Notes under the pieces: generated by a model
What the model was told of the DNA's origin: nothing
The model's database searches: none
Seen by the model: the letters and a program-made list of their open reading frames with translations, nothing else
Assembly: GCA_024704765.1 (NCBI GenBank)
Contig: JAKMXF010000210.1
Span: 656,121 to 720,120 of the forward strand
Reading direction: 5' to 3'
Source: Oopsacas minuta
Lineage: Eukaryota; Animalia; Porifera
Length of the DNA: 64,000 nucleotides
Position numbers and translations under genes: made by a program
Shown: in pieces, positions 10,675-50,058 of the stretch
How the letters are laid out: the number at the start of each line of letters is the position of its first letter
Position numbering within the stretch: position 1 is the first letter of the stretch

Positions 10675-10775
10675 CAGCCTAATCACTCAGTATATTACTA
10701 TTAATAACTACACAATGTATAACCTTATTACTAAATGTTATTATGATATTCGTTAGCTGATTGAAATGCTTTAGA

Positions 10776-13700
10776 ATGGATGATAAATCTCGGAGTGATA
10801 ATAAGAACGATAACTTTAAAGTGGGTCTACGAGTTAGACCCCCTCTAACCAAGGAGTCCAATAGCAAAAGATGTGTGCATCTGGAGCATGGAGGTGTGTC
10901 TGTATTCAGAGGGAACCTGGGATTAGACCTGAGAGGCAGGTCTCCTCAAGCTCTCATTGACGTCACTGACTTAGCAAATCTACAACCTGACCCTAAGCCT
11001 CAGACATTCTTCTATGATAGTTTGTTTGATATAACAGCATTACAGGTATAATAACCGCTATATTATAGCTATACTAGTGTTATCTATTATTAATTGTAGG
11101 AAGAAGTGTATGATACTTGTGCTCAGCCTATTGTCCTATCAGTACTGGAGGGATACAATGGTAGTGTTATAGCATACGGACAGACTGGTACTGGTAAGAC
11201 ACACACGATAGAAGGGACATATAGTGAGGAGGGGAGAGGCCTGATCCCTAGGTGTTCTGAGGAGATATTTCATTTTATTCAGAATAAAGCTGACTCGGAT
11301 TCTAAGTTCTTAGTAAGTTATCTAAACAAATAATAAAGAACAAACAATTCTATTATTTATTGGTGCTTTCAACTGGCTTCTTCTTGGCGGTGAGCAATAC
11401 TCCCGCTACTATAACGAACACTGTAAATCCCTGAGCTGCTACACGGGCCCGCATCATCAAATTTGACTTTCTTTGATCACCTTTAACGAACTGATATAAT
11501 CCATAAGAAAGTGCTGCTACTGTCAGTCCACATCCCAGAGGTACGAAGGGGTTTTCCTTGAGTTTCCTCCAGAGCTTCTCTCTCCTGGTCTCGGGTCCTG
11601 AGTAGATATATTCAGACAGCTGATCAGCAGTTATCTTATCTGAACTCATAGCTAAATAATAAATAGAAATTAGTTTATCAACCATAGATAAGAACTATAA
11701 ATTATAGGTACGGGTCTCCTTCTTGGAAATTTATAACGAGCGTCTATTTGACCTACTGGATCCATCTCATGAAAAGCTACGAGTACGCGAGGACGGCTCC
11801 AGCTGTACGTTTGTAGAGGGACTGAGTGAACACGTGGTTAAAGGGACCATGGATGTGAACAGACTTCTCAGGAAGGGATCAACAGCTCGTATAACAGATG
11901 GTTCTAAAATGAACAAAGAGAGTAGTCGCAGTCATGCTGTATTCACAATAGTGATAGAGCGATCTGGCGGATCATACAGGAGTAGAGTAACTATTGGGAA
12001 ATTACGCTTGGTTGATTTAGCTGGCTCTGAGAGGTGAGAATTGCCGCGAAATAACGCATAGTAATTCAGTTAATTCCCTCCTAATAGATTTGATATAGAA
12101 GCAAAAGACAAACATTTAACAGAGACTAAGAACATCAATACATCTCTCACAACATTCGGTAAAGTAGTTCTAGCCCTGACTAGCTCTGGATATCACTCCT
12201 ACATACCGTACAGAGACAGTAAGCTGACTAGGATCCTACAGGACTCCCTGGGTGGTAACAGCAAGGCCTTCTTAGTATGTACAGTCAGTCCTATGACAGA
12301 TTGCTATCTGGAGACCTTAAGTACTCTAAAATTCGCTCAGCGAGCTAAACATATACAGAATAAAGCTATTGTGAATCAGGACTTTACGAAGAAGGCAATG
12401 CTCTCTGCCTACGAGAAGGAGATAGCTCGTCTACACAAGGAACTGATCGAGAGCAGAGAGGGATGGGTATCTGCTGGGGAGTTAGAGAGAGTTAAAGAGG
12501 AGAAAGAGAGAGTTGAGTTAGAAAGAGAGGAGGTTATGCATATGCTGGCTAGACAGAACGAGCAGAGTAATCTGAAGGAAGATGAGAGAGAGAGTCTTGA
12601 GAAAAAGATACAGGAATTAGAGCTTCTTGTACTTAAGGTAATATATATCATATAATATAATATATTATTAGTTAAATATTCTTGTTCAGGGTGGTGATAA
12701 GTCTAAAGGGTCGTTAATAACTCCTGAAAGAGAGCTAGTCGATCAGAGACAAGCTCTAGAAGCAGAAAGGAAGAGATTAGAGGACGAGAGGATAGCATTT
12801 AAGCAAGAGAAAGATTCTTTCTTGAGAGCAAGAACAGCTCCTGACGGACAGACGGGATCTGATGAGGAAAATACCGACATGACGTCACCATATCGTCGAC
12901 GTGCTGGCAGTATAAGTTCATCAATCAGTTCATTACGTACTGGTCAGAACACACCAATTATGAGACAGTCTAGATGGTCTCAAAACTACGCGTCTATGTA
13001 TCCAGCTGGTCCTGTAATAGGTAGGAGTCACCAAGGATGGGTAGGATATCCTGTAAGTTATCATTAATGCTTATACATTACTCATTCTATTGATTATTAA
13101 CTTTATAGCAGCAAAGAAGCTCTGTAACAGCTCTCTTAGACGCATCGTACAGGAAGTCTCTTATCACATACGTCACTGCTCTGGCTAATCCTAAGACAGG
13201 AATTCCGTGTAAACAGTTCGATAATGGTTTGTCTGTGTTCTCAGGCAGTCATGCAGTCAAATGGTTCATGGATAATATGGATGGAGTAGGTAGTGTAAAT
13301 GCTGCTGCTGACGTAGGACAGAAGTTAATGAATCTACAGGTAATATCCCTGTTCCATTAATTCATAAATAATTATTACTTATAACAATTGTATAGGTGTT
13401 TATTAGCATGGACGGGACTCTACACTTCCTTCCTTCAGACACCAATTACTACAGATTCTCTCCTGAGTATATTCCTATTCATTCATCCTATCCTAGCAGA
13501 GAGAGTATACACTCAATAGACAGACCTATCTCCTCAGCTGTTCCTTCTATCAGGTCTAATAAATCCAGGAGCTTATCACCTGAATCCTATCCTCTGTCAA
13601 ATATGACATCTGACAACCTATCAACTAACACATACAGTCTCTTGTCTGATACGTCTTCTATTAGTAGTTACTCCTCCATGTCCTCAGCTACCAGGATACC

Positions 13701-16044
13701 TCTAATTGACAGACTGGGTTGGTCTAGTGCCTCTCTTCTACACATGACAGCTTCTCAAGTAAGTACTCTCCTCTATTGGATATATACTAATTGTTATATC
13801 TATATGTGTGTAGGGTAACCGGAGTCTCTTAAAGAGGTTAGTAGCTACACAGAACGTGAATGAGCTGGATACAGAGAACAGATCTGCTCTTATGTATGCT
13901 TGTGTGGGAGATCAGCTAAAGGCTGCTGAGATATTAATTAAGAAAGGAGCTAATACTAACTTAGTAGATAAGGCAGGTAACTCTGCTCTAATCTATGCTG
14001 TACAGTTCGGGAGAGATCAGGTTTGTTATTCTGTTTGATGCTCCAAATATTCTTTATAGCTTGTATTAGCTAGTTAAACTATTATTGAAGTCATCAGCTG
14101 ATTCATCTCTCAAGAATAAAGAGGGGAAGAATGCTATTCACATATGTGCAGAGATAGAAGAGAGTCTCAGATGTTTGGAGTTCTTATGCAAGTAATTATT
14201 ATTCAGACATATAACTTGTAATAGTCATTCTATACATATCATATATGTATTCTACAGACATTCTAGTGTAAATAGAGCTGTTAACGAGAGAGACGGTCGT
14301 ATGCAGTCTCCTCTACATATCAGTGTATTTGCTAACCTCCCTCAACACACCAGGATGCTACTAGTAGCTAGAGCTAAGCTGTGTATCAGTGATGCTGAGG
14401 GTAGGACCCCTCTACACTATGCTATTACAGCTAATTCTCTAATATGTCTTCAAATCATACTAGAGGTTGTTAATAATATTATAACTAGTAATTACATTCT
14501 CTTTGAATCTGGTTTCTCTATTGAATTTCAGAGTATTCTCATAACATGCATGTTACCTACGTAATAGACATAATTATATTAATAATCAGTTCAGAGCACT
14601 TAGAGGAGTCCAAGTTGTCGGATAGCCTTGAACTGGTCTGGAATCTCCATGAGGGCGTGGAGTGCAAAGTTCACTTCAGGGAAGTCTTGACCCTGAGTGA
14701 CCTTGTGGAAGTTCACAAATTGGAAATTATCAAAAGTTCTCTCTTTAATTCTGTCATCAAAATCCTCCATCGTATCCCATGGTCCATCTCCTACTCCTAC
14801 CATAACTATAGATAGCGGATACTTAGAAGCTCGTATTATTGCCGCGATAGTGTCTGCTTCATTTGTTACTTGTCCGTCCGCTATAATCACCAGGATATGA
14901 TATGACGTCATACTCCTAACTATCTCTATTGCTTTGTCAATGAGAGGCGCAAAGTTGGTGGGACCAGAGAGGGTAATGTGTGGAGTAATCTGCTCGTAGA
15001 TCTTCAAAGTGTCACTCACTCCGTTACACATTCCTCCATCTGTCTTGATGTTAAATACATTATTTCCTTTTGTTCTAGAATCCCCGAAACCATAAACAGG
15101 TATCATATTATCGTCATCAAATGGTTCTAGCACTAATCCTAGAGTCCGTATAACTTTCTGATATGGGTTGAGGAGAGGAGGGACTAATGCGTGTAGAGAG
15201 TGTCCTCCAAAGGTCTGCTCCCCTTGTGTGTTGTTACTACGTGTATAGTCTATACCAAATATCAGCTGACTAGACTCTAAGCCCGCCTTACGCATGCTAG
15301 CTTGTAAATCCTCAAAACTTCTGTATTTGTCCTGGATCGTTAGAAGAGTGGGTGTAGATTGTTTAGGGGGTTGTTTCTTCTTCTTCTTGTTAGCAGTCAC
15401 CAGATACACAATGAATAGAATTAATACGATTATCAGTAGTGTGTCCATGCTTGTATGCTGTAGAATATTTGTTATTATACTTTAGAGTCTGATTGCTATT
15501 GTATAGTCACACACTCCTATATATTAACATGTTACAGTATGTGTTTATGCCTAATGTAGTAATTCAAGTCAGGATTATTGTCAATGATTGAATGTAGTAA
15601 TTCAAGTCAGGAGTATAGTCAATGATTGAATGTAGTTTCGTCATTTATTTACTTAATAGTTAAATAGTTTGTACATTTATTTGTTAGAATTGTGGAAGAG
15701 ATGTAAATATTCCTGATACATCTGGGTGGTCTCCTCTACATCTTGCCTGTCATGACGGTACATCAGAATCTGTACAGCTGTTGATATCTTCCAAATATTG
15801 TGATGTCAATCTGTTAGACTTACACTCTGCTTCTCCTCTACACAATTGTGTGTTTGCTAATCGTCCTGACCTCATCAAGAAACTAATAGAGGCTGGAGCT
15901 AACCCTAACTGTCAGGACAAATCTAAGAGAGCTCCCTTACACTATGCCATAGAGAGGGGGTACACTGAATGTGCTCACATGTTACAGAAGAGTAACACAC
16001 CCCTCAAGGGCAAGACCCTGCTACACAACTTAAGAAATCTTTAG
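10776..16044 (+). CDS. Kinesin motor protein whose downstream exons encode coiled coil, a DEP domain and ankyrin repeats. About 12 exons; approximate exon list: 10776..11046, 11100..11312, 11713..12033, 12088..12651, 12687..13058, 13108..13339, 13396..13758, 13814..14010, 14091..14191, 14258..14463, 15688..16044
   Basis: Motor motifs [22 protein letters not shown] (P-loop), SSRSHAVF (switch I), LVDLAGSER (switch II), VSFLEIYNE and [23 protein letters not shown]. These are followed by the coiled coil [15 protein letters not shown].... The DEP core [31 protein letters not shown] is split by an intron. ANK repeats follow ([50 protein letters not shown]). Every junction has a GT donor and AG acceptor with consistent phase, and there is no in-frame stop between the motor and the DEP/ANK exons. 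Whether this is one transcript is inferred. Confidence 0.5.
11353..11685 (-). CDS. HIG1 domain protein (HIGD1/2-like), complete 110-aa ORF nested antisense inside kinesin intron 11313..11712
   Basis: [44 protein letters not shown] matches the HIGD1A consensus PFVPVGIAGFAAIVAYGLYKLK..MRVAAQGFVV. ATG start. Two TM helices. Confidence 0.75.
   Translation of the reverse strand: MVDKLISIYYLAMSSDKITADQLSEYIYSGPETRREKLWRKLKENPFVPLGCGLTVAALSYGLYQFVKGDQRKSNLMMRARVAAQGFTVFVIVAGVLLTAKKKPVESTNK
14600..15448 (-). CDS. Copine-like vWA-domain protein with N-terminal TM anchor (no C2 domains), nested antisense in a 1.2 kb intron of the ANK-repeat exons
   Basis: The N-terminal hydrophobic anchor is followed by a KKKKK stretch. 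The vWA/copine core reads [97 protein letters not shown] and aligns to the copine C-terminal A-domain consensus (NPY..A..VG..YD.D..FPAFGFG, LLIITDG..D, SIIIVGVG). Confidence 0.7.
   Translation of the reverse strand: MDTLLIIVLILFIVYLVTANKKKKKQPPKQSTPTLLTIQDKYRSFEDLQASMRKAGLESSQLIFGIDYTRSNNTQGEQTFGGHSLHALVPPLLNPYQKVIRTLGLVLEPFDDDNMIPVYGFGDSRTKGNNVFNIKTDGGMCNGVSDTLKIYEQITPHITLSGPTNFAPLIDKAIEIVRSMTSYHILVIIADGQVTNEADTIAAIIRASKYPLSIVMVGVGDGPWDTMEDFDDRIKERTFDNFQFVNFHKVTQGQDFPEVNFALHALMEIPDQFKAIRQLGLL
15552..15638. repeat. About 38-bp tandem duplication (2.3 copies) in the intron between the copine-like gene and the downstream ANK exon
   Basis: aatgtagtaattcaagtcaggattattgtcaatgattg is repeated as aatgtagtaattcaagtcaggagtatagtcaatgattg, then aatgtagtt. 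Confidence 0.85.
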
Positions 16045-22398: not shown

Positions 22399-25300
22399 AT
22401 GACTGACGTAATATTCCAAGAAATGCAAGCAACATTCATTAAAATACCGCTAACAGCTAGACCACCAACCAGAAAGAAGTTTATTAGATGTAGTAAGGAT
22501 ACGCTGGAGATTTTAGTCAAGCCTTCTAAAGGTGGTAAAGCTGAAGACATAATAGATATAAGAACTATTCATGAGGTGAGGAAGGGGAATGATATTCTGA
22601 GAGAAGAGAGGATTGTGGATGCCAGTGTTACTGATGCTAAAATGTGTTTTACGATTGTATATGGTTCAGAGTTTAGATTGAAATTTGGAGTCTTTATTTG
22701 CTCTAATTGGAACATTCGTGAGTTCTGGTCCGAGGGACTTTTGACTCACATGCAAACAATCGCGAAACTTGATACAAATAGTCATACTAGGATTTGGCTT
22801 ATGAAGGAATTCAATGAACTGGATAGGAACCAGACCAGCACTATTGGGACTAATGATTTAAAGAAGACCTTTTTCAATAGAATTCAGCTCAAAATTCCTC
22901 GCGAAAAACAACACAAATTGATTGCAGACCTTGACACTAAGAATGTTGGTTATGTTTACTTTCCACAGTTCAGACAATTCTACCACAAAAAACTAGTATT
23001 CAACGAAGATATGATGAAGCTACTTAGTCATTGCATGTCTTTCCAGCTCAAGAATTCTTGGTATATTAGCTCTCAAGAGCTCTGTGCCTTTCTACAATCA
23101 GAACAATTCGTTCATCACATTCCTATAACCACCTTACTGGCCGAGAAAATGATCCGGCCTTATCTGCTCTCTGAGAAGCCTCTCTCCACTCCCAACTTCC
23201 CGATAGATGAATTCTTCGACTACCTCTTCTCTCGTGGGAATAGTTTATTCGATGATGAATACACCTCTAGACTCTTGGCTGCTGATCCTAACTATATGGA
23301 CTACAGTATGTCTGAGTATTGGATCAATTCCTCTCATAACACCTATCTAACTGGTAACCAGTATGCATCAGAGAGTACTGTAGAGGCTTATATACGAGTA
23401 ATGAGGAGCGGGTGTCGATGTATAGAGCTGGATCTCTGGGACGGAGGTCCTGATGACTTACCTTGGATCACTCATGGTCACACCAGATGTACAAAGATAA
23501 AGTTCCGTGACATAGTAATTGCTATTCGTGAGCATGCCTTCGCTACCTCAGACTACCCCATGATATTATCACTAGAAGAGCACTGCTCTATTCCAATACA
23601 GAAGAATACTGCTTATGAGTTTAAGAAGATTTTAGGAGATCTGTTGCTTACAGAACCAGTAAAGGGCGCTACCTGCCTTCCTTCTCCCAATCAGCTGAAA
23701 CGTAAAGTTATCCTAAAACACAAGAAACTCCCCGAGGGATCAGATGAGACCGTGGTCTTGACAGATACGGGAGAGGCTCAGGTCACTAAACAGCAGGACA
23801 TATCCAACTCCCAGAAGAACGGATTCTTGTATCTGAAAGATCCAGGAGCTAATGTATGGACTCGTCGCTACTTTGTACTGACAGACAAAATCCTTTCCTA
23901 TTGTATAGAAGAAGATGACCAGGAACAAGACACAGAGAATGTACGGGACCACATTTATATGGAAACAGTACCTTCCCACTTAAAACATATAAATCATGTA
24001 TGGTATCATGTAGTTGATAGAGATGGAGCAGTGGACAAACTGAAAGAATTTGAAGGTGGTAATGGTTCCTTCTTGGTACGTCCTAATGATAAGTATGAAG
24101 GTTATGTGTCTATATCATTTAAACATGAAAGAGAGGTTTATCACAGTCTTGTAAAACGTATACCAAGTCCTGACGGTCTGTACAACTATCAGCTGGTACA
24201 TCCTATGACATTTGATGATATACCTAGTCTCGTGGATTACTACAAGTGTCACCCTTTACGAGCTTCTACCTTTGAACAAATCTTGACTACTCCCTGTCCC
24301 TGTCCTAGCCTCAGTAACACTAACCACGAGGCTCAGCCGTGGTTCCATGCGGGTATGAAACGCTGGGAAGCTGAGAAGATGCTGACATCTGTCCGACTAG
24401 AAGGAGCCTTTCTAGTCCGTCCCTCTGGTGAGCAGAGCACCTACACGATAACATTCAGGACTGAGAATGAGATTAAGCATTGTAGAGTTGAGTTCAATAA
24501 AGACAGTGGTCTATACACGATAGGAACTGCTCAGTTCGAGTCTCTGAGTGAATTAGTGGTTTATTACAAGTCTCATCCTCTCTATCGTAAGATGAAACTT
24601 AAACACGCTATCAATGAGAGTATGCTCAAGAACATCGGAGTAGATGCAGAAGCCTCAGCAGAAGCTGAGTACATATCTGTTAATCCTGTGACATACAGAT
24701 CTATACACGCATTCACTGCTCAGAACAAAGATGAATTGAGCTTCCCAGCTGGAGTAGAGATAACTAATGTGATAGAGCACCAGCACACGAAGGGGTGGTT
24801 TCAGGGAGACTTTGGTGGAAAGGTTAATCTATGGTTTCCTGAAAACCACGTTAAGAGGTTCGATGCTACCACTCCTCTGACTCCAATGGACCCACCGAAG
24901 CCTGAGCTGGATAATCAAGAGGAAACCATAAGGATCGAGAATTTGGAAGTGACTCGGGTTAGCCCACATTTAGCAGGTCGTGAGTGGGTGCTGAGACTGG
25001 TTCAAGACGTTCCAGTCGAGTACAAAACGCTAAAACCTGAATCTAGCAATGCTCTATTTGTGGGTTGTGAAAACGAAGAAGACTTCAAATCTTGGGAGTC
25101 TAAGCTTAATGAAGTGAAGAAGGAACTGACCAGAAGTCAGAGCTTGGATGCTCGTCTCCAGAAGCGGACTAGCATTGCAAGAGAGATGTCTGACTTGATC
25201 ATTTACTGTAGATCTGTTCCATTCCGTGTGGAATCTATAGGGAATGGAAAGTTTAGCGAAATGTCTTCATTCCCAGAAACCAAAGCATTTCATCACGCCC

Positions 25301-26166
25301 TCAATCGCGAGACAGCTCCCAAACTTGTGATTTATAACCAGCAGCAATTCAGTAGAGTATACCCCAAGGGCAGTCGTATAGATTCTTCCAACTACTTGCC
25401 TATTCCTCTATGGAATATGGGGTGTCAGATGGTAGCACTCAATTTTCAGACACCAGATAAAGCTATGCAAGTTAACGATGCTCGTTTTTTGGTTAACAAC
25501 AAACTGGGATTCGTGTTGAAGCCTGCCTTTATGCGAATGAAAGATACCAAGTACAATCCACTAGATCCCAAGACTGTACCCACTCCCCCCACACGTATAA
25601 CCATCCGTGTATTGGGTGGGAGACATCTGTTCCGAATAGGCAGAGGGTTCCCTTCCTGTCGTGTTACTGTTGAAATTGTAGGAGCAGACTATGACAATCA
25701 GTATTATATGACATCTAATATATCTGATAACTGTCTGAACCCTGTCTGGGAGTACAAGAGCTTTGAGTTCTCTGTAAAGAACCCTGAGTGTGCTTTCCTA
25801 AGATTCGTAGTACATGATATAGACATGTTCGGAGATCCTAACCAGATAGGTCAAGCTACCTATCCATTGACTGCTATACGTCCCGGGTTTCGATCGGTAC
25901 AGTTAAAAACCCCATTCTCTGAAGAGTTAGAACTCTCTTCTCTTCTTGTATATGTCATCTTAGAGAACGGCGAGAAGTCGCAGAGTGACAGTACGGAAAT
26001 CAAGTCCCGCATCGACAAGCTCAAGGACGAGTTACGAGGTCTCTACTCGTCGGGAGACCTGCGCTCTGATCTAATTGAGTCCAAGAGACGGGAGCTACAG
26101 GCTGCTCAGAACCAGATGGACCGAGTCAGTCAGGAAATGAATAGAATAAATACTTTACGCAAGTAG
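22399..26166 (+). CDS. PLCG: Phosphoinositide phospholipase C-gamma, single 3768-nt exon
   Basis: X-box catalytic YWINSSHNTYLTGNQ..CRCIELDLWDG. Tandem SH2 domains (FLVRPNDKYEGYVSISF and WFHAGMKRWEAEKML..GAFLVRPSGEQSTYTITF). An SH3 domain (YRSIHAFTAQNKDELSFPAGVEITNV). Y-box SRVYPKGSRIDSSNY..WNMGCQMVALNFQT, followed by a C2 domain. Confidence 0.9.
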   Translation: MTDVIFQEMQATFIKIPLTARPPTRKKFIRCSKDTLEILVKPSKGGKAEDIIDIRTIHEVRKGNDILREERIVDASVTDAKMCFTIVYGSEFRLKFGVFICSNWNIREFWSEGLLTHMQTIAKLDTNSHTRIWLMKEFNELDRNQTSTIGTNDLKKTFFNRIQLKIPREKQHKLIADLDTKNVGYVYFPQFRQFYHKKLVFNEDMMKLLSHCMSFQLKNSWYISSQELCAFLQSEQFVHHIPITTLLAEKMIRPYLLSEKPLSTPNFPIDEFFDYLFSRGNSLFDDEYTSRLLAADPNYMDYSMSEYWINSSHNTYLTGNQYASESTVEAYIRVMRSGCRCIELDLWDGGPDDLPWITHGHTRCTKIKFRDIVIAIREHAFATSDYPMILSLEEHCSIPIQKNTAYEFKKILGDLLLTEPVKGATCLPSPNQLKRKVILKHKKLPEGSDETVVLTDTGEAQVTKQQDISNSQKNGFLYLKDPGANVWTRRYFVLTDKILSYCIEEDDQEQDTENVRDHIYMETVPSHLKHINHVWYHVVDRDGAVDKLKEFEGGNGSFLVRPNDKYEGYVSISFKHEREVYHSLVKRIPSPDGLYNYQLVHPMTFDDIPSLVDYYKCHPLRASTFEQILTTPCPCPSLSNTNHEAQPWFHAGMKRWEAEKMLTSVRLEGAFLVRPSGEQSTYTITFRTENEIKHCRVEFNKDSGLYTIGTAQFESLSELVVYYKSHPLYRKMKLKHAINESMLKNIGVDAEASAEAEYISVNPVTYRSIHAFTAQNKDELSFPAGVEITNVIEHQHTKGWFQGDFGGKVNLWFPENHVKRFDATTPLTPMDPPKPELDNQEETIRIENLEVTRVSPHLAGREWVLRLVQDVPVEYKTLKPESSNALFVGCENEEDFKSWESKLNEVKKELTRSQSLDARLQKRTSIAREMSDLIIYCRSVPFRVESIGNGKFSEMSSFPETKAFHHALNRETAPKLVIYNQQQFSRVYPKGSRIDSSNYLPIPLWNMGCQMVALNFQTPDKAMQVNDARFLVNNKLGFVLKPAFMRMKDTKYNPLDPKTVPTPPTRITIRVLGGRHLFRIGRGFPSCRVTVEIVGADYDNQYYMTSNISDNCLNPVWEYKSFEFSVKNPECAFLRFVVHDIDMFGDPNQIGQATYPLTAIRPGFRSVQLKTPFSEELELSSLLVYVILENGEKSQSDSTEIKSRIDKLKDELRGLYSSGDLRSDLIESKRRELQAAQNQMDRVSQEMNRINTLRK

Positions 26167-37165: not shown

Positions 37166-40100
37166 ATGATTAGTCAGAAATGGTACAGCAATGGATTAGA
37201 ATTGAATGAAGATGATGAGAGGAGCTACACAAGAGAGGAGTTCTCTCTATTTTCTTTTGATTATTCCAACTCATTCATTCCATACTCTGCAGAATTCTAT
37301 AAGGATACAGTTAATCTCTTCTCTATAATATTTCTATCATTTTCTGATTTCGTTACGAATCATAAAGCTATGTTTAATCTATTCAAACAACATTTAATGT
37401 TATCTGAGGAATCTGCTCTAACACACGTGTCTGTTCCCAATCTATCTCACTTACAACATTGTCACGTATTTCTGCATTTCTTAGTATACTCGCTAGCTTC
37501 TGCGTCTCCTAGAGAATGGAATAAATGTGATCTCCAGTTGTTCGGAGATACAGTATCTTCACAGCTTGAAACTGTCTGTCTCTTAGTTATCCAACTCAGT
37601 GAAGCAAACAGGTCTTCTAACATGATGATCCCCTCCCCTCACGCCCCTCAAGAAGTACACCCTTACACTCAGCTTCTTATCGACATTAAGACACACCTCT
37701 TGTTATCTCACCACTACATTACCAGACTAGTACCAGAGTATAAGAGTCATACATTTGAATTTATAAAGTATATTTGGACAGATCTGTTAGAACAGTCACT
37801 TGTCATCTTCTCTACTCACTCAGATCTGCTACGATTAAACTTCTCACCTTTCAATTGCTATTCTCATATAGAAATTTGGTGCTTGTCAGCCCAGCTGTCA
37901 GATATATTGACAGCAGATGGCCAGGTGTCTGGCTTTTGGAATTTATTTATTCCTACTCTCCTCTCATTTTCTGATTCTATTTCTTTACCTTTGGAGAAAA
38001 ACAAGTTTGTTTGGTGGTTATTAGTTAACCTTTCAAGAGTGTTACCTCTTTATATGCATAAACATCAAATAAGTTGTTGGGAGCTCTGTAGGGACTGTGT
38101 TATTACTTTAGCTAATCTACAATCTGATTCTAGTTCTCCGCAGCTAGCATTCTCTCTATGGAGTATAATTAAGCTATCCAAGTATTGGGGACAATCAATG
38201 GATTCTGTTATGCTATTATGGGAATCGTTTAGTAAGAAATTGGGAGATATGACCAATAACACTAATCATAAGGCAATGTCTGTAAGAAACATATCTGAAT
38301 TGAGATATCACATTATCAATAATCCCTCAGAAGTAAATAATCCCCTACAAGTTTCATCTTTCGAACTTTTTCTGCGATTTTTCTCTCTCCAATTTAGTCT
38401 GGTCGAGGAATTGCCTACTGATTACTGGAAGCGATATAAAGGTAGGTTTTACTCAAAACTCTCATTTCGCCGGCTACAAAATCTTAAATCAGATTCTATT
38501 CTTAATCTCTATCTGCTTACATTTGTTCTTGGCTACAAAACTGATGCTGATGACGTAATTGACAAATCGAGTGAATTATTTCTCAAACTGTTATCAAACT
38601 CTTCTTCTGTCGTCCCGTCAGCTACGCTGTTGTTAATTTGGGAATCTTTGTTTGGACTTTTCCATGTCTTTACAGATAAGGCAATCAGTTTATCGAACTA
38701 CCTCTCTAAGATTCTACCCAAACTCTGTGAGTACCAGAATATTGCCATGTTTGATGCTAATTATGCCAAGTTACATTGGGAAGTTTGTAATTTGATGTGG
38801 CTTGAGTTACCAGAGCTTAGTAGCTGTCCGGAGCTAATCCATTCTGTATTGGAGGTTCTGCAGGAGTTATACGTCTCGCACTATTCTGCATTCCATAAGG
38901 AGCATATTGTTGTTACAGCTCTTAATATTACTCAAGTATTGATAAGTATATATAACTTGTTAGTTGATAACTCATCTGTAAGAGAAACTTCTGAGAAGGT
39001 ATGTCTGTTTCTTTGGGAATTTGGCTACCCTAACTGGAGACAGGATCATCTCTCAGTCTCATCCGTCCCTGAAATGGGACCTCTTATCTCTCGTCTCATT
39101 CTCCTCTCTATCATATCTGAGTGTAATCCTGTTGTGAGCTTCAGCGATGTAGTTAAAGAAGTTTTGTTCTGTAACAACTTGCCTTGTCAAGTCGGGTGTC
39201 TTTTTATACAAGGTTTTATCTGTGAAGAAATCGGTAGGCGACATGTTTCGCAACATTTGATATTCATACAGCTGTTCACCAAAGCTTGGGTGCTGTACAT
39301 AATACAAACTCACAGATACCCACAATTTACTCCTTCTCTCATTGCATGCACCAATCTGTTGAGGACCCTTTCAATCTTTGGACAGACAACTACTGTCAGC
39401 TGTCTTTCTGACGTCATTATTATTTTCGAGTCTCTCTTGAAACAAATTACACTGACTGGAGAGAGCTACAGAGACTCTCAATATTTCTTTATTTCAGAAT
39501 TCTTAGAGTGGATTGAGCCTCATCTCTGCGACCCGAGCACTTCAAAGGAATGTTTATTCGCGATATACAGATTATCTTATAGTCTGGTGCGGTACTGTCC
39601 AGCTGTAATTTACAGTCACACTCAGACCAATTGCATCCTACCCAGACTCATTGAATACCTCTTCTTCCCTACACATTCTCTGTCCAAGCTTCCTCACCCA
39701 GCACACCTAGACTGTGTGAGAGGATTCCTCATAGAGTTCTTGTCCAGTCTATTTATGCTGCAGTCAGAAACTGACCAGTTTATTCAGCGAAAAATACGAC
39801 AACTATTTTCTAAATATTTTTATCGATTCCAACAACAATCTCAAGGAAACGTTCTTGTTTCTTCCAAAGACAATCCTTTCCTATCTCTGTTTGATTCGGA
39901 CTTGGTTACTGAGCAGAATTCATTTCCAACTAATCTACACCCTGCATTGTGTGCTCTCTCTGTTATACGGGGATTGTTCTTAAAACTTCCTCAGCCTCCG
40001 ACTACTCTCATACAGACTCTGCTTTTCTTGCATAAAATGACAGATATTGCTTCTAACGAGCTCTTAGCTAGTTCTGGAGAACACTTACTCTTTCCAATGC

Positions 40101-40453
40101 TCGGTTGTCTGCTAGCTTGTAACGAATGTCCTACCAATAGAGAACCCCAGCAAATTAGAGAGCTAGCTGAAACTGTTATTCAGAGGATCCTAAGAGCTGT
40201 CACAAGGATGACAAGTATCTGTCACAGACATAAGTTAGTCGAATCTATAACTACTTTTGTTGCAGCGAACATGCCTTCTTGCCATGGAAAGGTATTCACT
40301 ACTTTAAGGATAATTGCTCAGATAGATCCGCATCTCATAGCTCTTTGCATCGGAGAGTTCCGCTCTCTGTTACTAGAGTTTGAGAAAGGTAATCCTAAAG
40401 TAGCAGCAGAAATACGAATAGAACTGAACAGATTAGAGAGTATATTGAAGTGA
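37166..40453 (+). CDS. Large uncharacterised alpha-helical (HEAT/ARM-like) protein, 1095 aa, single exon
   Basis: Uninterrupted 3.3 kb ORF with an ATG start. The sequence is Leu-rich and helical throughout, and I recognise no catalytic motif. Confidence 0.45.
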   Translation: MISQKWYSNGLELNEDDERSYTREEFSLFSFDYSNSFIPYSAEFYKDTVNLFSIIFLSFSDFVTNHKAMFNLFKQHLMLSEESALTHVSVPNLSHLQHCHVFLHFLVYSLASASPREWNKCDLQLFGDTVSSQLETVCLLVIQLSEANRSSNMMIPSPHAPQEVHPYTQLLIDIKTHLLLSHHYITRLVPEYKSHTFEFIKYIWTDLLEQSLVIFSTHSDLLRLNFSPFNCYSHIEIWCLSAQLSDILTADGQVSGFWNLFIPTLLSFSDSISLPLEKNKFVWWLLVNLSRVLPLYMHKHQISCWELCRDCVITLANLQSDSSSPQLAFSLWSIIKLSKYWGQSMDSVMLLWESFSKKLGDMTNNTNHKAMSVRNISELRYHIINNPSEVNNPLQVSSFELFLRFFSLQFSLVEELPTDYWKRYKGRFYSKLSFRRLQNLKSDSILNLYLLTFVLGYKTDADDVIDKSSELFLKLLSNSSSVVPSATLLLIWESLFGLFHVFTDKAISLSNYLSKILPKLCEYQNIAMFDANYAKLHWEVCNLMWLELPELSSCPELIHSVLEVLQELYVSHYSAFHKEHIVVTALNITQVLISIYNLLVDNSSVRETSEKVCLFLWEFGYPNWRQDHLSVSSVPEMGPLISRLILLSIISECNPVVSFSDVVKEVLFCNNLPCQVGCLFIQGFICEEIGRRHVSQHLIFIQLFTKAWVLYIIQTHRYPQFTPSLIACTNLLRTLSIFGQTTTVSCLSDVIIIFESLLKQITLTGESYRDSQYFFISEFLEWIEPHLCDPSTSKECLFAIYRLSYSLVRYCPAVIYSHTQTNCILPRLIEYLFFPTHSLSKLPHPAHLDCVRGFLIEFLSSLFMLQSETDQFIQRKIRQLFSKYFYRFQQQSQGNVLVSSKDNPFLSLFDSDLVTEQNSFPTNLHPALCALSVIRGLFLKLPQPPTTLIQTLLFLHKMTDIASNELLASSGEHLLFPMLGCLLACNECPTNREPQQIRELAETVIQRILRAVTRMTSICHRHKLVESITTFVAANMPSCHGKVFTTLRIIAQIDPHLIALCIGEFRSLLLEFEKGNPKVAAEIRIELNRLESILK

Positions 40454-43072: not shown

Positions 43073-46000
43073 TTATAATCGATTATTTCTGCTTCTTATC
43101 CAACTAACGACCTCGCTTAAGTAAGTTAATCCAGCTGAAGCTGCTATACTGTCAAACACTTCAAAATGAGTTGACAGCTTGTCATTAGATAGTGTTTTCG
43201 AGTACTGCCCTGCACAAGGACAGAACTGTGACATGTGGTCTGCCTTGACCTGATTACACTTAAGACAGACCAGATCCTGAAGTAAATACGTCCTTGATAG
43301 ATTCTGTACTATCTCTACAAGTTCTGTTTCGATGAAGTCTCGATTGTAAGGCTGTCCACATGTACATTTCCAAATAATCCAACCACTTCTCTCATCATAC
43401 ATGTTGTTAGCATCTCGTATCACATCCAAATCCCTCGCGTAATCGCAATAGTTACACACTATCTGCGGTAGGACATAAGACCTACAGGGATTATTGAATA
43501 CGCCTAGTTTGGAGAATTCTCCTACATTCAGCAATTTCAAGAGGTCGCGTTTTATCTTAGTTATTTGTGATTCTAAGTTGGAGTCAAGGGAAATTATCTT
43601 GCATATTATTTTGACAAAATTAAGGAGATCAGACTTTCCTTGTGTTTCTGAGTAATTACGGTCTTGTCTGACGTCATACACTATTTTATACATTTGTTGA
43701 CTTATCACATCTTCCACTCGTTGAATTGTGTAATTTAACACACTCATTCCAATGGCAGACGGCTGTTGTGAGGAAGTTTTCTTAAGAATGGGGGTCTCTC
43801 CTCCCCTGGTTATATTGTACTCGTCATGTGCGTGAGTATAAATATCTGTGATATGCTCTTCTATCACTCTGCTAAACATTTGCTTGTAATCTGGGTCATT
43901 GGCCAAGTAATCTTGTAGATTCCATCGCATGTCAAGTTTTCTTTCTTCAGAAATGAGCTCGTTCTGAGTTGTTTCTACAAGCACACCTCCGTAATTGGCA
44001 GTATCCATCCACAAGAGATATTCCCAGCACTGCACATGTTCCAGTCCAACATAATGAAATAAATCTTTATTATGAATACTGCTAAGAATAAACTCTGAGT
44101 ATGATAGAGCATCTTCTATCTTCTTCTTTCTAGTACTAATCACGAGTTTGTTAAAGGAAGCGTATATAATGCTGGCTCCCAGCCTTTTGAACTCTGCGAT
44201 GAATTGCATGAATATCTTCTTCATCAGTTTGTGTATCATCCTACAGAGTCCGGGCTCGTAGAGTAAAGAAGAAGGAGACTTTAGCCAACGATAGAAATGT
44301 TGTTGTAGAATATCAGCCATCTCGTTACCCTTATGGATATCTTTAACCCAGCTCCATACCATAGACCTGAGGATTTTAAATGTAGGCGAGCAGAGTGCAG
44401 CTTCGTCGAATGAAGATAGAATGTTGCTCGAGCTGACTCCACTCTCAAGCATTTCTTCTAGAGAGGCTTGAGGGATAAAGTCAAAGCTGATGGAGGATAC
44501 AGTTCCTCCTTCATAGTCATTGATATGAGAGGATTGGAGAATAGCAACGAGGGCAAGAGAGTGCACTGCAAACTCAATGCATACAGTAGCATAAGTGCCA
44601 GGATTGTTTAGCTCCACCTGTTTTACTTCGTTGGGATTTGAAAGGAAACGGAAATCAGTTTGTTGTTTTCCTCCCAAGTCTGGATCTGGTGAGCGGGACA
44701 CCCAGAGTAAATGGTTATTACGTGTAAGGTTTCGCGAGAAATAAATATCTACCAAGAACCCAAGTACATCCTGTGAAATATTTCCTACTGGAACACCTCC
44801 ATAACGTGAGAGCTGCTTCTGTAGTTCAAAACTGTGTAATGAAACAAGAAAAGAAGAAAGCATTGATTTGGCGGCTACTCTCTGCCAATCTAGAGCTGGG
44901 TAGTTGTTATCACTGTCACTGAACGCAAGTTGAACAAGAGGAAAGTCTTTGAGAGAATGAATGGATTTGGACAGCTCGCTACGGGATAAGCTAGTTTGTA
45001 ACAAAACTATTGTAGGTCCTTTCTTCTCTCGGTTGTACTCACCTAACAATTTATCGATATGCTTAAATGCTTGTCTGTACTCTGTGTCAACTCTAGCTTC
45101 GAAAGAATATTCTTGTTGTGGTAAGGGGTTAACTTGACCCGTGTCATTAAATGACTGCCATTCATTCTCGTAAACTTTTGAAAGATTCGAAAGTTTGTTT
45201 TTCCTAATTGTGTCCAGGATAAAAGTATGACATTTTCTAACTCCTGTAACAAAGATCCCGATAATTCCTCTAGATTCCTTCCCACTCTGGTACAAATAAA
45301 TAATTTTCATTTCTTTTCGTAAATAATTTGATTCTGTTTCTTGCTTTGAGCTGAGATGATGAAGTTCAAACACATCGACCTCTCCGCTAGCCACCGATCT
45401 TGTGAACTCTTTGTTTACGCTACAAACACAGCCAAACTCCTTTATTATTCTGAACATCAGAGGAACTTGAGTTTCATAAATACCTTCGACATTAGGCCCA
45501 GAAAGTTGCATCGTCCATGAGCTAATCTGCTCGATGAAATGTCTTTCTGGAATTCTAAATTCGTAAAGATATTTGGCTGGACAGGAGCGTGGTAGGTGCT
45601 TATTCACTTTTCTACAGACACTTCCTTGCAGCTCAAAATCTTCAGGGGCCTTGCAGTTAATGTAGAATATTCTTGGAATCTGTAGCTTGATTGTGTGTAG
45701 ATCTCTGCCCAGTAATACCCATAAGATGAAACGCCCGGGTGTTAGGTCTTCGCAGATCTCAATAATCTCCCAAGCATCCTCTCCGAGAGAGATAGTTTGC
45801 TTCCTCAGAAAGTCAGTCATATTTCGGTGAGTTGGTTCACTTTCTATTGACATGCCGAGTATTTGTCGCTCAACACCCTGAGAGGCGCTATGGCTTTTAG
45901 CAAGTTTACGGTTTTTTCTTTGTATCTGCCATTTCTTTTTGTGAAAACTTACCCAATCTTCCATCTCTTTCTTACTGGTTCCTATTGATGGAGGGTTACC

Positions 46001-49000
46001 CAATGCTATCCGCCAGTTTACTTGAGTAGTTTGGTCACTAGCAATATTCTTCTTAAATTTACAGAGTTTATTCTTTCTCTTCTTACTAACTAACTCATCT
46101 TCCATCCCTGAAGCTTTTCTCTTCCTACTCTCATTGTTATGAGCCTTACTAATAATCTCAAGATGTTGCTCATGAGTTACATAACTGAATAAATCAGAGA
46201 TTCGCTTCTGTTTGAAAACATCATTCTTCTCTAGCATCCTCTTGTGTAGCCAATCAGGGTGCTGGACACGAGGCACTGGATTGCTAATCCCTTGCAGAGT
46301 AGCAGGAATAGTTATTATCTTCTGAATTGTGCTGTTCAGTCTTTCTATGTAGTATTCCCAGTCTAAGAGAGACCGCAAATCAAAATCAATTAGAGAGGAA
46401 TCTTTCAGCCATTTCCTCAGATAATGTTTCTTTACACTTACTTCGGAGTGGAAAATAGCGAGTGGGATTGCCCGCTCTGTAACTGGAGCACCTTCTGGCT
46501 TCTTTGCTATTACGAATCTACAAGCAAGACCTTTGTCTTTAACCATTTGATCACCCAGGAATTCTGCGAGGCGTTTAGCTGTACTGATAGAAGTAGATTT
46601 CTGTTCTCCGTAGTCTTCCAGTTTCCGTGACATACTTCTGCTTTCTGCTATCAATTCAAATAACTCCTCATCTCCCATGTTCTCAGCTTTCTTGTATAAA
46701 ATGTCTAACCAATAATCTGCAACTTTTGCAACTTCTGAGAAGCATTCTTCCAAGGTTTTACCCTTGAGGAAGCTAGCGAACACTTCAGACTGAAATATTT
46801 TGATTATTTGTAATTCTCCTCTCCTCTTCACTTCAAAACCTTTCAATTCTGCAAGCGAACCGTCAAAATTAAATACAGCATATCTCTTTTTTAGTTTCCT
46901 GCCTTCTTCTTTTGCTGCAGGAAGTACCATTGCTTGGTAAGGCCCGTCAACTTCAAAGAAAATAGAATTTTCTACTCTAGTAGCATAGACTAAGTTCTCA
47001 GGATCTTGCAGAGTCTGGTACTGGTCATTTGTAAAGTATTCCTGCACCATCTTATTTAACATGGCACCTGGATAAGAGATGTTCAGTTTAGCTTTTTTCT
47101 TGTCTGTGGTATTGACTGCTACATTTTCTGGGAAACTTGACGGTAAAATACACCAAATTCCATCAGTGTCCAACTCGAGTGGCCTTCCTATCTGCTCCAC
47201 TATTTCTTTAGCTTTGGTGATTATTTTAGCTCCAGTGTAACACACAATGCCAGCCATTTCCATTGAGTACCATCTTGCACCCTTTCTCATTACATACCCG
47301 TAAAATGAATTGAGAAGGCATTTGTGTGCTAATTGAAGGGAGTCATAAAGAATTACCATTCCATTACATTTCTTCTCTTCCGTAGGGTCGCTGGATTTCT
47401 TTGATTCTTCCAATTTCTTCTTCCAACTTTTCAAAAGACCTTTGAACTCATACCTCCTATTCCTGAAATCTCTAACCGTATCAACATAGAACGGATGTTC
47501 TCGCATACACACAGTTGTCAATCTCTTCTCTTGTCTGGTTACTCGTATCTTCTTGTATGCTTTTCTACAATATTCTTGCAGTCTTTTCTTCTCAAAACTA
47601 GCTTGTTCTTCTTTAGAGAGACTATGAAAAGGACTTGGTGCAACTCCTGGAACTACCGACACAAACTCCGCTTCTAATTGCTGTCTAATATTTTGAATTT
47701 CACTCCTAGAAGCGGGCATAAAGTCTCCTCTCCACATCCATTCCATATCCCTCTGACACCTTGAAGAAGGTCTATTGAAGCTACAGGCTGCGCACGTGGC
47801 TTCGTCTACAACAGCTGAGGGCTGGAGTCTGTTTGTTAGGATAATGTTAGGGTACATGGCTCCTACGTCAAGATGATAGATAAGTGGGTACTCATACCGA
47901 TTGGGGGTGTCTCTTAATTCCACTAACTTGCTACGAATCTGTTCACATACTCCTTCGAAGTTTATAACTGTTTCTAAAGAGATACCCTCTTCCTTCACAA
48001 TAGCATGTATCATCGTATCTTCAATCCCATCGATTAGTTTCTGACAGGCAGCAGGAACAATTTTGAAGCGATAAGGTATATTTGCTCTGAAAACACCTGA
48101 CTCTATCGCCTCTACGTGACCACCCACATACGTCTCTGAGTCCAGCATGTGTCCATCATCTGTGAGTTTGTTTAGAATATTTTCTTGCTTGTTAGGGAAG
48201 ATAACATTGGCTTCGTAAGCCTTTACCATCAGTAGAGCCTCACAGAGTGTTCCGGTTCCCTTACGCAGCACTTCGTCAGGTTCTAGTGGTATGATGGTTG
48301 AGAGAGCGAAAACGAACGGATGAACATATTTAACATAGAGGTAGTAAGTAGCTACTGCATCGGATACTGAATAGTTGGAGAGGCCCTGAGGATCTTCACT
48401 AGCCATTCTACACATATCCTCTGGATCTATCTCCACAGGATTGTAGCGTAGTTTAGCTCTAGTAGCTGCTTTCAAGTGTTGACTCCCCACAGGGAGATAA
48501 CTGTCCCGTTTTACCCATCTGTACGCGTCCATGTGTATCGCATGACGAGATTTGTATTCATTCTGATTGTCTGGAGCAAATCCTAACTCTTCTGCAAGAT
48601 TTATATTGAAATGAGCCATCCTAGCATCAACGAATGGCCAATCGAACATATCTCCATTATAAGTGACGATTATATTCGGTCGGACATCTTTGATATGATC
48701 AACAAACCGCTCAAGCAGAGACTTTTCGTCTGGTTCATTGAAAACTATAAACGGTCCCTGGTATTCAGGTCTAGGAGTAAATTCAAAATCGTCAACATCT
48801 TTAGAGATGATATCTCTGTTAGTGATTAGGTAGCCTTGACAATCTATCATATAGGATATCATCATTATTGAGTCAGTTGCTGAGTCAGGGAATTTCAGTG
48901 GTAGTTTGGTGGTTTCTATATCAAAAGCAAGTATTATTGGCTCTGGACGAGCCGGGTCATCATGGAACCTAATTTCTGGCGGATTACTGCCATGCCCTTT

Positions 49001-49653
49001 AACATGATACCACAATCCGCAGAATATTTGTAAGTCAATGCTAACTCTAACATGATAAGGGACATCATATTCCCGAATATCAATTATGTTTTCTCTCTGG
49101 TCAGTTATCTTTGGTGCGTTAGATACTACCTCTTCTGACACGGATAGATTGTGTGAGAAGAGACTTTCATCATAAATTGGATTAGTTGACTTTTGATTCT
49201 TTTTCACCGCAGGCATTATGTCTCGTTTTGCTTTTATTAGATCTTCAACTGAGTAAAAGCGCAACTTTAGAAACATAGCTTTGATCCCTATCAAATGATT
49301 TGGAAGATCCAAGTTTTCTTTTTCAATAATTTCTATTGTTGCTAGTCTCCCAGAAAGTTTTCTGCTGATATAGGTACTCACTTCTTTTTCAGTTCCTTTC
49401 TTTGTTCCGATATAAAAGTAGGGTTGATAAGGGATCGTAACTTTGAACCTGCCCCCATCATCCTCAATGAAGTAATAGTCCACTGCACTGACCAGCCTCT
49501 TATCTTCATCCATAACATCTGCCGGATGCATGTTTATCAGGAATCCTAGTCTCTTGGCATGTTCTCGATATCTATCAAACCCGAACTTAGAATCCATCTC
49601 ATCGTTTTTGAGAGCCCTCAAATACCGATTAGACTGTTGTGGTTCTTCTATAG
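43073..49653 (-). CDS. POLE: DNA polymerase epsilon catalytic subunit A, single 6.6 kb exon
   Basis: N-terminus FGFDRYREHAKRLGFLINMHPADV..AVDYYFIEDDGGRFKVTIPYQPYFYI (human: [40 protein letters not shown]). Exo I ILAFDIETTKLP. Polymerase motifs YHLDVGAMYPNI and LELDTDGIWC. C-terminal Cys4 zinc modules CNYCDYARDLD...CTCGQPY and CLKCNQ...CPCAG. The ORF extends to 49741 from a TTG; the ATG at 49653 aligns with the human N-terminus. Confidence 0.9.
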
Positions 49654-50058
49654 GGACTGACATTCTTTTAGCAATTTTATGTGATCTAATCTGTCTGATA
49701 GAGGGAGAAATATACAATTTATTTTTTAGGTTCACTAACAATAAGATCGCTTATTAACTTTTGTAATTAATCTTTAGCTCTAAACCCGTATCTTCTCCTG
49801 AAAGTTATTCTGATTTAACATTCAAGAGAAATTATCCTTTGTATTAATAAATAATTTGATTTCTATTATCCTACACTATCATTTCCTGAAATCTCCACGT
49901 AGGTATTTATTTGATTGTTTGTGTACTTTTCTGTTTCCTCAGAGTATATTTGTTAAATAGAACTTTACAAATTTAATACTGTAATGTCTGTAATGATTTC
50001 GTATTATGTTTGTGTATTTATTAGGAAAATATTCTTCTAAATTCGGAAACTTAAATTA

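Follow-up and report, generated by a model that had tools for sequence, protein, structure and literature searches.

The host gene and its introns

The window analysed is a stretch of DNA of 64,000 nt from Oopsacas minuta, a glass sponge (hexactinellid), and all positions are counted from its first nucleotide. The locus contains a plus-strand host gene, which encodes a kinesin motor, a coiled coil, a DEP domain and ankyrin repeats, and two intronless genes on the opposite strand, one within intron 2 of the host and the other within intron 10 (Table 1). The host gene was modelled manually with GT-AG introns, giving 11 exons and a protein of 1069 residues. The full model matches the Pfam Kinesin profile over its whole length (E 2.8e-104, profile positions 1-327 of 327), together with the DEP domain (E 1.6e-8, 34.8 bits compared with a cut-off of 32.7) and Ank_2 (E 2e-44). 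The same architecture of motor, DEP domain and ankyrin repeats is common to homologues from Halichondria, Corticium, Amphimedon, Oscarella, Salpingoeca and Monosiga. The host can be placed among the kinesin-DEP-ankyrin kinesins of sponges and choanoflagellates, as the N-terminal motor, the DEP domain and the C-terminal ankyrin repeats are all present.

Residues 1-951 of the model are 100% identical to the database protein 'Kinesin-like protein KIF3A [Oopsacas minuta]' (P0034). This public model stops directly ahead of the second nested gene. The last exon is supported by an ankyrin repeat in the Pfam match, which bridges the junction of exons 10 and 11, and it is 75-86% identical in the related genomes L001-L006.

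The ten host introns measure, in order, 54, 395, 54, 52, 56, 56, 55, 49, 66 and 1222 nt. Eight of them fall within 49-66 nt, and both of the remaining long introns contain an antisense gene. Several features indicate that intron 2 is a genuine spliced intron, namely its GT-AG ends, the continuous frame and motor domain across it, the same exon 2/exon 3 junction in P0034, and its presence in five related genomes. According to Pfam, the full model gains a complete motor domain only through removal of these 395 nt. The open reading frames on either side had been described in a first-pass annotation, made from the DNA alone, as kinesin exons, and this is confirmed by the match of exons 1-3 to Pfam Kinesin (E 9e-69). 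The annotation placed the donor at 11313, where the GT is indeed found (11313-11314); its acceptor at 11712 was off by 4-5 nt, the AG being at 11706-11707.

Table 1. Features of the kinesin locus and its nested genes (positions in the window)
Feature	Position	Strand	Description	Support or remarks
Host gene (kinesin motor, coiled coil, DEP, ankyrin repeats)	10776..16044	+		Manual GT-AG model, open frame
Host exon 2	11100..11312	+	Ends ...DSKFL	Junction shared with P0034
Host intron 2 (HIG1-bearing)	11313..11707	+	395 nt, GTAAGT...TATAG	Phase 0, L161/V162
Host exon 3	11708..12033	+	Begins at V162	Junction shared with P0034
HIG1-domain (HIGD2A-type) coding sequence	11353..11649	-	98 aa and stop, intronless	Pfam, PDB match, orthologues
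In-frame upstream extension	11650..11685	-	12 residues, completes the 110-aa ORF	Absent in five relatives; 19% GC
HIG1 5' flank	11650..11707	-	58 nt, AT-rich	37-106 nt in relatives; sequence not conserved
HIG1 3' flank	11313..11352	-	40 nt	59-70 nt in relatives
AATAAA (candidate poly(A) signal)	11279..11274	-	Sole canonical AATAAA past the HIG1 stop on this strand	Within host exon 2, 34-39 nt from the intron; antisense to F-I codons
Host intron 10	14466..15687	+	1222 nt	Phase 0, E951/N952
Copine / vWA protein gene	14600..15448	-	282 aa, antisense, intronless	Pfam Copine E 2e-65

A HIGD2A-type gene in intron 2

The first-pass annotation proposed that the kinesin intron holds a complete HIG1-domain gene on the opposite strand, and as a statement of structure this is correct. 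The antisense open reading frame of 110 residues (11353-11685) is present and contains the complete domain, matching the whole of the Pfam HIG_1_N profile (PF04588, E 3.1e-24, 85.3 bits compared with a cut-off of 22.4, profile positions 1-52 of 52). The coding sequence is however likely to be shorter, at 98 residues, because in all five relatives the start corresponds to the second ATG (MS[RK]K..., 96-98 residues). The upstream extension is probably 5' UTR or promoter and not coding. The coding sequence lies wholly within the intron and fills 75% of it. Its GC content is 44%, compared with 19-20% in the flanks. A chance open reading frame is excluded by the Pfam E-value, the orthologues in five other genomes and this contrast in GC.

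The best PDB match of the protein is human HIGD2A (9i6f_N, E 1e-24, 89 bits), to which it aligns over residues 22-104. Matches to HIGD1A (7e-10), HIGD1B (3e-7) and yeast Rcf1 (2e-4) are weaker, and the named database matches are all 'HIG1 domain family member 2A' or generic. The protein differs from human HIGD2A in that the identity is moderate; the best-scoring named animal HIGD2A matches are 52-60% identical.

HIGD2A and Rcf1 are hairpins of about 100 residues with two transmembrane helices, located in the mitochondrial inner membrane. Type-2 HIG1 domains carry the motif (Q)-x3-R-x-R-x3-Q at the beginning of the second helix. The sponge protein resembles HIGD2A and Rcf1 in its length, in its match to the full HIG_1_N profile and in the motif LMMRxRxAAQGFTV. 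The stretch N63-LMM-R67-A-R69-VAA-Q73 (RARVAAQ) is invariant across six orthologues; it contains the R-x-R-x3-Q of the type-2 motif, but its first position is N and not Q. Judged by these similarities, the gene is a sponge orthologue of HIGD2A/Rcf1. Type-2 HIG1 domain proteins are assembly factors for cytochrome c oxidase and supercomplexes (10.1101/787721; PMC7762129; PDB 9i6f chain N), and in human cells assembly of the oxidase's COX3 module depends on HIGD2A (10.1101/787721; PMC7762129). A corresponding function would be expected of the sponge protein.

Flanks and transcript ends

The flanks had been put at 20-40 nt on each side, which does not hold once the start is placed at 11649: the 5' flank then measures 58 nt and the 3' flank 40 nt. 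The 5' flank ends in a T-rich tract and TAG, 2 nt ahead of the ATG, and the shortest 5' flank among the relatives is 37 nt (L003). In the 3' flank, AATAAT overlaps the stop codon and is followed by a T/GT-rich run. Among the six species the flanks are conserved neither in sequence nor in length, and no convincing conserved promoter or poly(A) motif was found in them. A TATAAA antisense to the EIYNE codons of the kinesin is present in only two of the six species.

The first-pass annotation had also raised the question of a poly(A) site inside the upstream kinesin exon. A canonical AATAAA, as a candidate signal, is indeed found in exon 2, although AATAAA occurs in only three of the six species, and ATTAAA in three. 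With so little room on either side of the gene (58 and 40 nt), and the sole AATAAA inside exon 2, the HIG1 transcript probably overlaps host exons, and it is reasonable to infer that the two transcription units overlap. The promoter would have to be at least partly antisense to exon 3, since the 5' flank is so short.

Conservation and selection

The order of exon 2, antisense HIG1 and exon 3 is kept in five related genomes (L001-L006), so that the nesting is indeed conserved in related species. The neighbouring EF-hand and copine genes are also the same in these genomes. Disruption of the reading frame was looked for as a mark of decay, and the orthologues are intact in all five (96-98 residues, in the same intron). 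The dN/dS ratio is 0.08-0.27, with dS from 0.5 to above 1 and synonymous sites largely saturated. The HIG1 gene is thus under purifying selection. A scan of JGI metagenome contigs found no more relatives of HIG1.

The second nested gene corresponds to KAI6655253.1, 'Copine family protein 2-like [Oopsacas minuta]', and occurs at the same position in L001-L006 with 89-91% identity. A Corticium homologue of the host (P0044) has an intron of the same position and phase as host intron 10, which is 342 nt long and empty. Judged by such shared positions, intron 10 is probably ancient and intron 2 specific to the lineage.

Nested genes in glass sponges

Human HIGD2A is not known to be nested. For another glass sponge, A. 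vastus, 2432 nested genes are reported, which is 12.4% of its genes, and many of them are conserved with O. minuta (PMC10282587, Francis et al. 2023). Glassin is described there as a single-exon nested gene in both species. The HIG1 gene resembles these reported cases, being a single-exon gene wholly within a host intron and conserved across hexactinellid genomes. The parts of that study consulted do not name the pair of a HIGD2A orthologue and a kinesin-DEP-ankyrin gene. The present case differs in that a single host carries two nested genes, and in that the HIG1-bearing intron has no counterpart at its position in the non-hexactinellid homologues. Nesting as tight as this is nothing exceptional to the HIG1 locus; it is the normal state of the O. 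minuta genome (PMC10282587). The nesting of HIG1 is in itself of little weight, given that nested antisense genes are common and are reported to be especially abundant and conserved in glass sponges.

The annotation of O. minuta is reported to under-call nested genes, with 83 listed (PMC10282587). The present locus is in line with this: the protein set lacks HIG1, and the kinesin model breaks off ahead of the second nested gene. No protein identical or nearly identical to the HIG1 reading frame was found in a collection of 15 billion proteins, transcriptome-derived sets included. It would appear that HIGD2A, owing to its nesting, was left out of the public O. minuta proteins.

Interpretation of the nested arrangement

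We conclude, with a probability of roughly 85%, that HIG1 is a functional intronless HIGD2A/Rcf1 gene, nested antisense in intron 2 of the kinesin gene as a by-product of genome compaction. The compaction is evident at the locus: intergenic spacers are about 100 nt, as between the stop of the EF-hand gene and the kinesin ATG, ordinary introns are about 55 nt, and the only long introns of the host are the two that bear genes. The nesting would then have arisen from extreme compaction of the genome. HIG1 is most likely an independent transcription unit of the minus strand, and its promoter, and probably its 3' end, would overlap coding exons of the host. During transcription of the host, the antisense copy of HIG1 would leave with the spliced-out intron.

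The nesting could instead have been kept through mutual regulation, either by transcriptional interference or by a sense-antisense RNA duplex between the HIG1 UTRs and kinesin exons 2 and 3. The arrangement is conserved across a deep divergence, the short flanks make an overlap of exons likely, and interplay of host and nested genes is reported in other animals (PMC12274878, PMC11694760, PMC3192792). However, conserved nesting is expected regardless, because about half of all genes are reported to be syntenic between two glass sponges (PMC10282587) and because taking an essential gene out of an intron is no simple mutational step. The host exons beside intron 2 have no excess of synonymous conservation, with a codon identity of 0.46-0.62, where the gene as a whole averages 0.47 and reaches 0.74 at its peaks in other parts. 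Since the synonymous sites of these exons are not unusually conserved, they give no independent sign of embedded regulatory elements. The HIG1 flanks are likewise not conserved, and there is no obvious reason why a housekeeping mitochondrial factor should be coupled to a kinesin. We regard maintenance by mutual regulation as distinctly unlikely, and antisense interplay of HIG1 with the host kinesin is pure conjecture.

It is very improbable that HIG1 lies downstream in a long polycistronic transcript of the minus strand that starts from or upstream of the copine gene, its mRNA being freed by spliced-leader trans-splicing at the T-rich tract and TAG. The copine and HIG1 genes do share their strand and keep their order in six of six genomes, a T-rich tract ending in YAG is found 2-35 nt upstream of the ATG in five of the six species, and the 37-nt flank in L003 leaves scant room for a promoter. 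However, the two genes are about 2.9-3 kb apart, far above known operon spacers, and the transcript would run antisense across eight exons of the kinesin. The operon spacers of nematodes and tunicates are far shorter than about 2.9 kb. A spliced leader of about 37 nt is reported in A. vastus, but it is carried by only 4% of long reads (PMC10282587). No Rfam matches to non-coding RNA genes, including SL RNA, were found in the 64-kb window. As a test for trans-splice acceptors, AG was sought within 10 nt of the ATG; it is present at 15 of 20 candidate gene starts, and the difference from the background of 57%, taken over every ATG of the window, is not significant.

A decaying or recently inserted non-functional retrocopy of a HIG1 gene elsewhere is hardly tenable: although an intronless gene lying antisense in an intron is the classical situation of a retrocopy, and a parental copy is possible beyond the window, the intact orthologues in the same intron of five genomes and their dN/dS, at largely saturated synonymous sites, argue that HIG1 is not decaying, there is no A-rich tail in the 40 nt past the stop, and the lack of introns is uninformative because about 60% of transcripts in O. 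minuta and A. vastus are reported to be single-exon (PMC10282587, Table 1). An ancient retroposition that yielded the now functional HIG1 gene is possible, and is no rival to its function.

Origin of the HIG1-bearing intron

A phase 0 intron at L161/V162 is present in six of six glass sponge genomes. No intron was found at this position in the homologues compared, which came from Ephydatia (a demosponge), Corticium (a homoscleromorph, represented by a paralogue other than the closest one) and Salpingoeca (a choanoflagellate). These homologues have instead an intron 9-12 codons upstream, at a common or nearly common position, where the glass sponges have none.

Two ideas were considered and rejected. 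Simple sliding of the intron from an ancestral site 12 codons upstream does not fit, as the intervening 12 residues are homologous in all lineages. The GTA at the start of the intron and again at the start of exon 3 might be taken as a target-site duplication; such a match is expected by chance from a Val codon and a GT donor.

The HIG1-bearing intron may be specific to the lineage and have an origin tied to that of the nested gene. This is a tentative suggestion, which we consider on balance unlikely. In one version, DNA carrying HIG1 would have entered a coding exon of the kinesin and survived through being spliced out, in which case the intron was born from a gene insertion. In the other, a gene-bearing intron would have moved to a new place within the host gene.

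A related proposal has been made for Giardia, according to which introns of an intron-poor genome are retained because an antisense gene overlaps them (PMC6545626). From what is reported of that case, the two are alike in that the O. minuta genome is intron-poor and compact, and that the only long introns of the host overlap an antisense gene. They differ in that the antisense gene here is entirely inside the intron, and the lineage-specific position of one of the host introns fits gain better than retention.

Implications

The O. minuta genome paper reportedly stresses missing metazoan core genes. With HIGD2A apparently lacking from the public proteins and the kinesin model cut short, claims of gene loss in this sponge need to be checked at the level of the DNA.

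The locus also provides a clean and datable example for asking whether the gene-bearing introns of an intron-poor genome are old and protected from loss, or new and made together with the gene. If a linked origin of intron and gene should generalise, nested genes would be more than passengers in the introns of intron-poor genomes, and would themselves give rise to new long ones.

The nested gene and its host

The host gene model was built manually, on the basis of GT-AG introns and the open reading frame. In its product a kinesin motor (Pfam E 2.8e-104, profile positions 1-327 of 327) is combined with a coiled coil, a DEP domain and a set of ankyrin repeats, an architecture which the protein search also found in other sponges and in choanoflagellates. 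Residues 1-951 are 100% identical to the GenBank entry 'Kinesin-like protein KIF3A [Oopsacas minuta]' (P0034), which assigns the window to this hexactinellid (glass) sponge, and the exon 2/exon 3 junction is the same in both models. Eight of the ten introns are 49-66 nt long, the exceptions being introns 2 and 10. Splicing of intron 2 is required for a whole kinesin motor domain.

The first-pass annotation placed a complete HIG1-domain gene in this intron on the opposite strand, which is correct: the 110-aa ORF matches the whole Pfam HIG_1_N profile (E 3.1e-24). Its donor and ORF limits also stand, but its acceptor was 4-5 nt off. In five relatives the start codon corresponds to the second ATG (MS[RK]K..., protein of 96-98 aa). 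They have no counterpart of the 12-codon N-terminal extension of the longer form, which at 19% GC resembles the remainder of the flank. The coding sequence is therefore likely to be the 98-aa form, with a 3' flank of 40 nt. GC content is 44% in this coding sequence, compared with 19-20% in the flanks.

Coordinates of the features in the window
Feature	Position	Strand	Description
Host kinesin gene	10776-16044	+	1069 aa, hand model
Host intron 2	11313-11707	+	395 nt, GTAAGT donor, TATAG acceptor end
HIG1 ORF, long form	11353-11685	-	110 aa, inside host intron 2
HIG1 CDS, probable	11353-11649	-	98 aa, start common with five relatives
Host exon 3	from 11708	+	begins [11 protein letters not shown]
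Host intron 10	14466-15687	+	1222 nt, last intron, copine-bearing
Copine/vWA gene	14600-15448	-	282 aa, intronless, Pfam Copine E 2e-65, KAI6655253.1
Last host exon	15688-16044	+	beyond copine-bearing intron 10
Formin exon	54365-55147	-	Drf_GBD/FH3
Formin exon	50793-53432	-	FH3/FH1/FH2

The best match among solved structures is human HIGD2A (9i6f_N, E 1e-24, residues 22-104), followed by weaker matches to HIGD1A (7e-10), HIGD1B (3e-7) and yeast Rcf1 (2e-4). Database matches that carry a name are 'HIG1 domain family member 2A' proteins of animals, the top-scoring ones at 52-60% identity, and all six orthologues have the block PLGCGLT...[15 protein letters not shown] without variation. HIGD2A is required in human cells to assemble the COX3 module of complex IV (10.1101/787721; review PMC7762129), and orthology suggests that the sponge protein would function in the same way.

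Conservation and selection

Among 5.8 billion protein clusters searched, five were close relatives of the HIG1 protein (63-74% identity), all from ENA assemblies and taken to be from other glass sponges on the basis of similarity and microsynteny. They lie on six contigs (L001-L006) representing five genomes, since L001 and L002, which are nearly identical, come from one sample. On every contig the order on the host strand is an EF-hand gene, kinesin exons 1 and 2, antisense HIG1, kinesin exon 3 onwards, antisense copine and the last kinesin exon, so that the antisense HIG1 gene is kept in the same intron throughout. This intron is 399-465 nt long in the relatives, with flanks of 37-106 nt (5') and 59-70 nt (3'). 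The two contigs of one sample (ENA ERZ25072730, ctg83184 and ctg83202) carry near-identical copies of the entire locus (HIG1 dS 0.03, dN 0), which presumably reflects haplotypes or a segmental duplication of recent date.

The HIG1 ORFs are intact throughout the relatives, and pairwise dN/dS is 0.08-0.27, with dS 0.5-0.6 between the most closely related species and greater than 1 otherwise. No alignable flank sequence was found among them beyond the host splice sites. Purifying selection has therefore acted on the HIG1 coding sequence over a long period. A pseudogene, or the decaying retrocopy that the first-pass annotation had considered, is rejected on the same evidence. It is concluded that HIG1 is a genuine gene, nested on the strand opposite to its host and conserved.

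Candidate transcription signals

With only 58 nt between host exon 3 and the HIG1 ATG (37 nt in the relative L003), the HIG1 promoter would have to reach into exon 3 on its antisense strand, unless transcription begins within that exon. At the other end, AATAAT overlaps the stop codon and is followed by a T/GT-rich run. The sole canonical AATAAA downstream of the stop on the minus strand is at 11279..11274, 34-39 nt within host exon 2 and antisense to kinesin codons F-I; AATAAA is present in three of the six species and ATTAAA in three of six. The host exons flanking intron 2 were scanned for extra synonymous constraint as a footprint of embedded HIG1 signals. Codon identity at conserved residues was 0.46-0.62 there, against a gene-wide mean of 0.47, and peaks in other parts of the gene are as high or higher. 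These comparisons speak neither for nor against a regulatory interplay of HIG1 with its host.

A T-rich tract ending in YAG lies upstream of the HIG1 ATG in five of the six species, and passages of the Aphrocallistes vastus genome paper report a spliced leader in that glass sponge (PMC10282587). Trans-splicing of HIG1 is possible but unsupported: an AG within 10 nt of the ATG occurs at 15 of 20 candidate gene starts and at 57% of all ATGs in the window, which is not a significant enrichment. Acceptor-like T-rich tracts that end in TAG or CAG are seen a few nt before many candidate starts across the window, for example at 10775, 11651, 15449, 41717 and 55650.

Position of the HIG1-bearing intron

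Exon boundaries of the kinesin homologues from Ephydatia muelleri (P0072, the one demosponge compared), the homoscleromorph Corticium candelabrum (P0044, which may be a paralogue rather than an orthologue of the host, since P0037 scores higher) and the choanoflagellate Salpingoeca rosetta (P0058) were mapped on their own genomic loci, and the proteins were aligned. None of the three has an intron at the position of host intron 2, between L161 and V162; the stretch ...(R/K/Q)(F/W)LVR(V/A)SFL(E/Q)IYNE... is uninterrupted in their DNA, and tblastn found no HIG1 or copine gene within their kinesin loci. In both Ephydatia and Corticium an intron of phase 1 lies 12 codons upstream (F-x-Y^I), and in S. 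rosetta one of phase 0 lies 9 codons upstream; neither occurs in the glass sponges. Host intron 10 agrees in position and phase with a 342-nt empty intron of Corticium. Because intron 10 has this match and intron 2 has none in the homologues, the copine-bearing intron is ancient, and the HIG1-bearing one specific to the sampled glass-sponge clade.

The 12 residues that separate the old and new positions are homologous in all lineages, which excludes simple intron sliding. It is possible that the old intron was lost and a new one gained, and that HIG1 came in together with the new intron or later; a gene-bearing intron may instead have been relocated, or an ancestral intron may have been lost three times independently. 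Only some intron positions are common to the homologues (introns 3, shared with Ephydatia, and 10 exactly, several others within 1-3 residues), and the intron counts are 10 in the glass-sponge kinesin, 40 in the Corticium homologue and at least 21 in the 732-aa Ephydatia model. Intron content also appears to differ among the glass-sponge relatives; for example, one tblastn alignment in L001 continues unbroken where O. minuta has introns 3 and 4.

Other nested genes and compaction

The last host exon is 75-86% identical in all relatives and aligns with the C-termini of other sponges' kinesin proteins, and an ankyrin repeat is rebuilt across the exon 10/11 junction (Pfam), three results that support this exon. 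The public model P0034 (983 aa) lacks it, instead reading through 32 codons of intron 10 and stopping shortly before the annotated copine gene, and the public annotation thus conceals the copine nesting. A tandem repeat (15553-15636; 38 nt, 2.2 copies, 95% match) is found within intron 10 in the 239-nt 5' flank of copine.

A 160-aa ORF at 53824-54306 (+) sits in the gap of about 930 nt (53432-54365) separating the two formin exons. It has no Pfam match, and is a candidate for a third antisense nested gene of the window. Another ORF, at 50059-50472 (+), is vaguely similar to it.

Intergenic spacers are about 100 nt. There are also very long uninterrupted ORFs, at 43073-49741 (-) (2222 aa, by eye resembling the DNA polymerase epsilon catalytic subunit), 22399-26166 (+) (1255 aa) and 37166-40453 (+) (1095 aa). 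Such long single exons are consistent with an intron-poor O. minuta genome.

Discussion

Opposite-strand nested genes are well known in animals generally. Nesting has been described as a hallmark of glass-sponge genomes. Passages of the A. vastus paper count 2432 nested genes there (12.4% of genes), many of them being conserved, and report that microsynteny with O. minuta is extensive (Francis et al. 2023, PMC10282587). The same passages give only 83 nested genes for the O. minuta annotation, and explain low numbers in some genomes, in general terms, by gene-prediction programs that do not allow genes to be nested. The HIG1/copine locus agrees with the picture in these passages.

The O. minuta genome paper makes no mention of nested genes or HIG1. 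A collection of 15 billion proteins contains the O. minuta kinesin and copine of this locus but not the exact HIG1 sequence, as 98 or 110 aa, so that the HIGD2A orthologue appears to be unannotated in the public genome; the 5.8-billion-cluster search likewise returned no O. minuta match to HIG1. The HIG1/kinesin pair appears to be missing from the public O. minuta gene set. The lineage-specific position of host intron 2 is the only element of the locus that could lead anywhere new.
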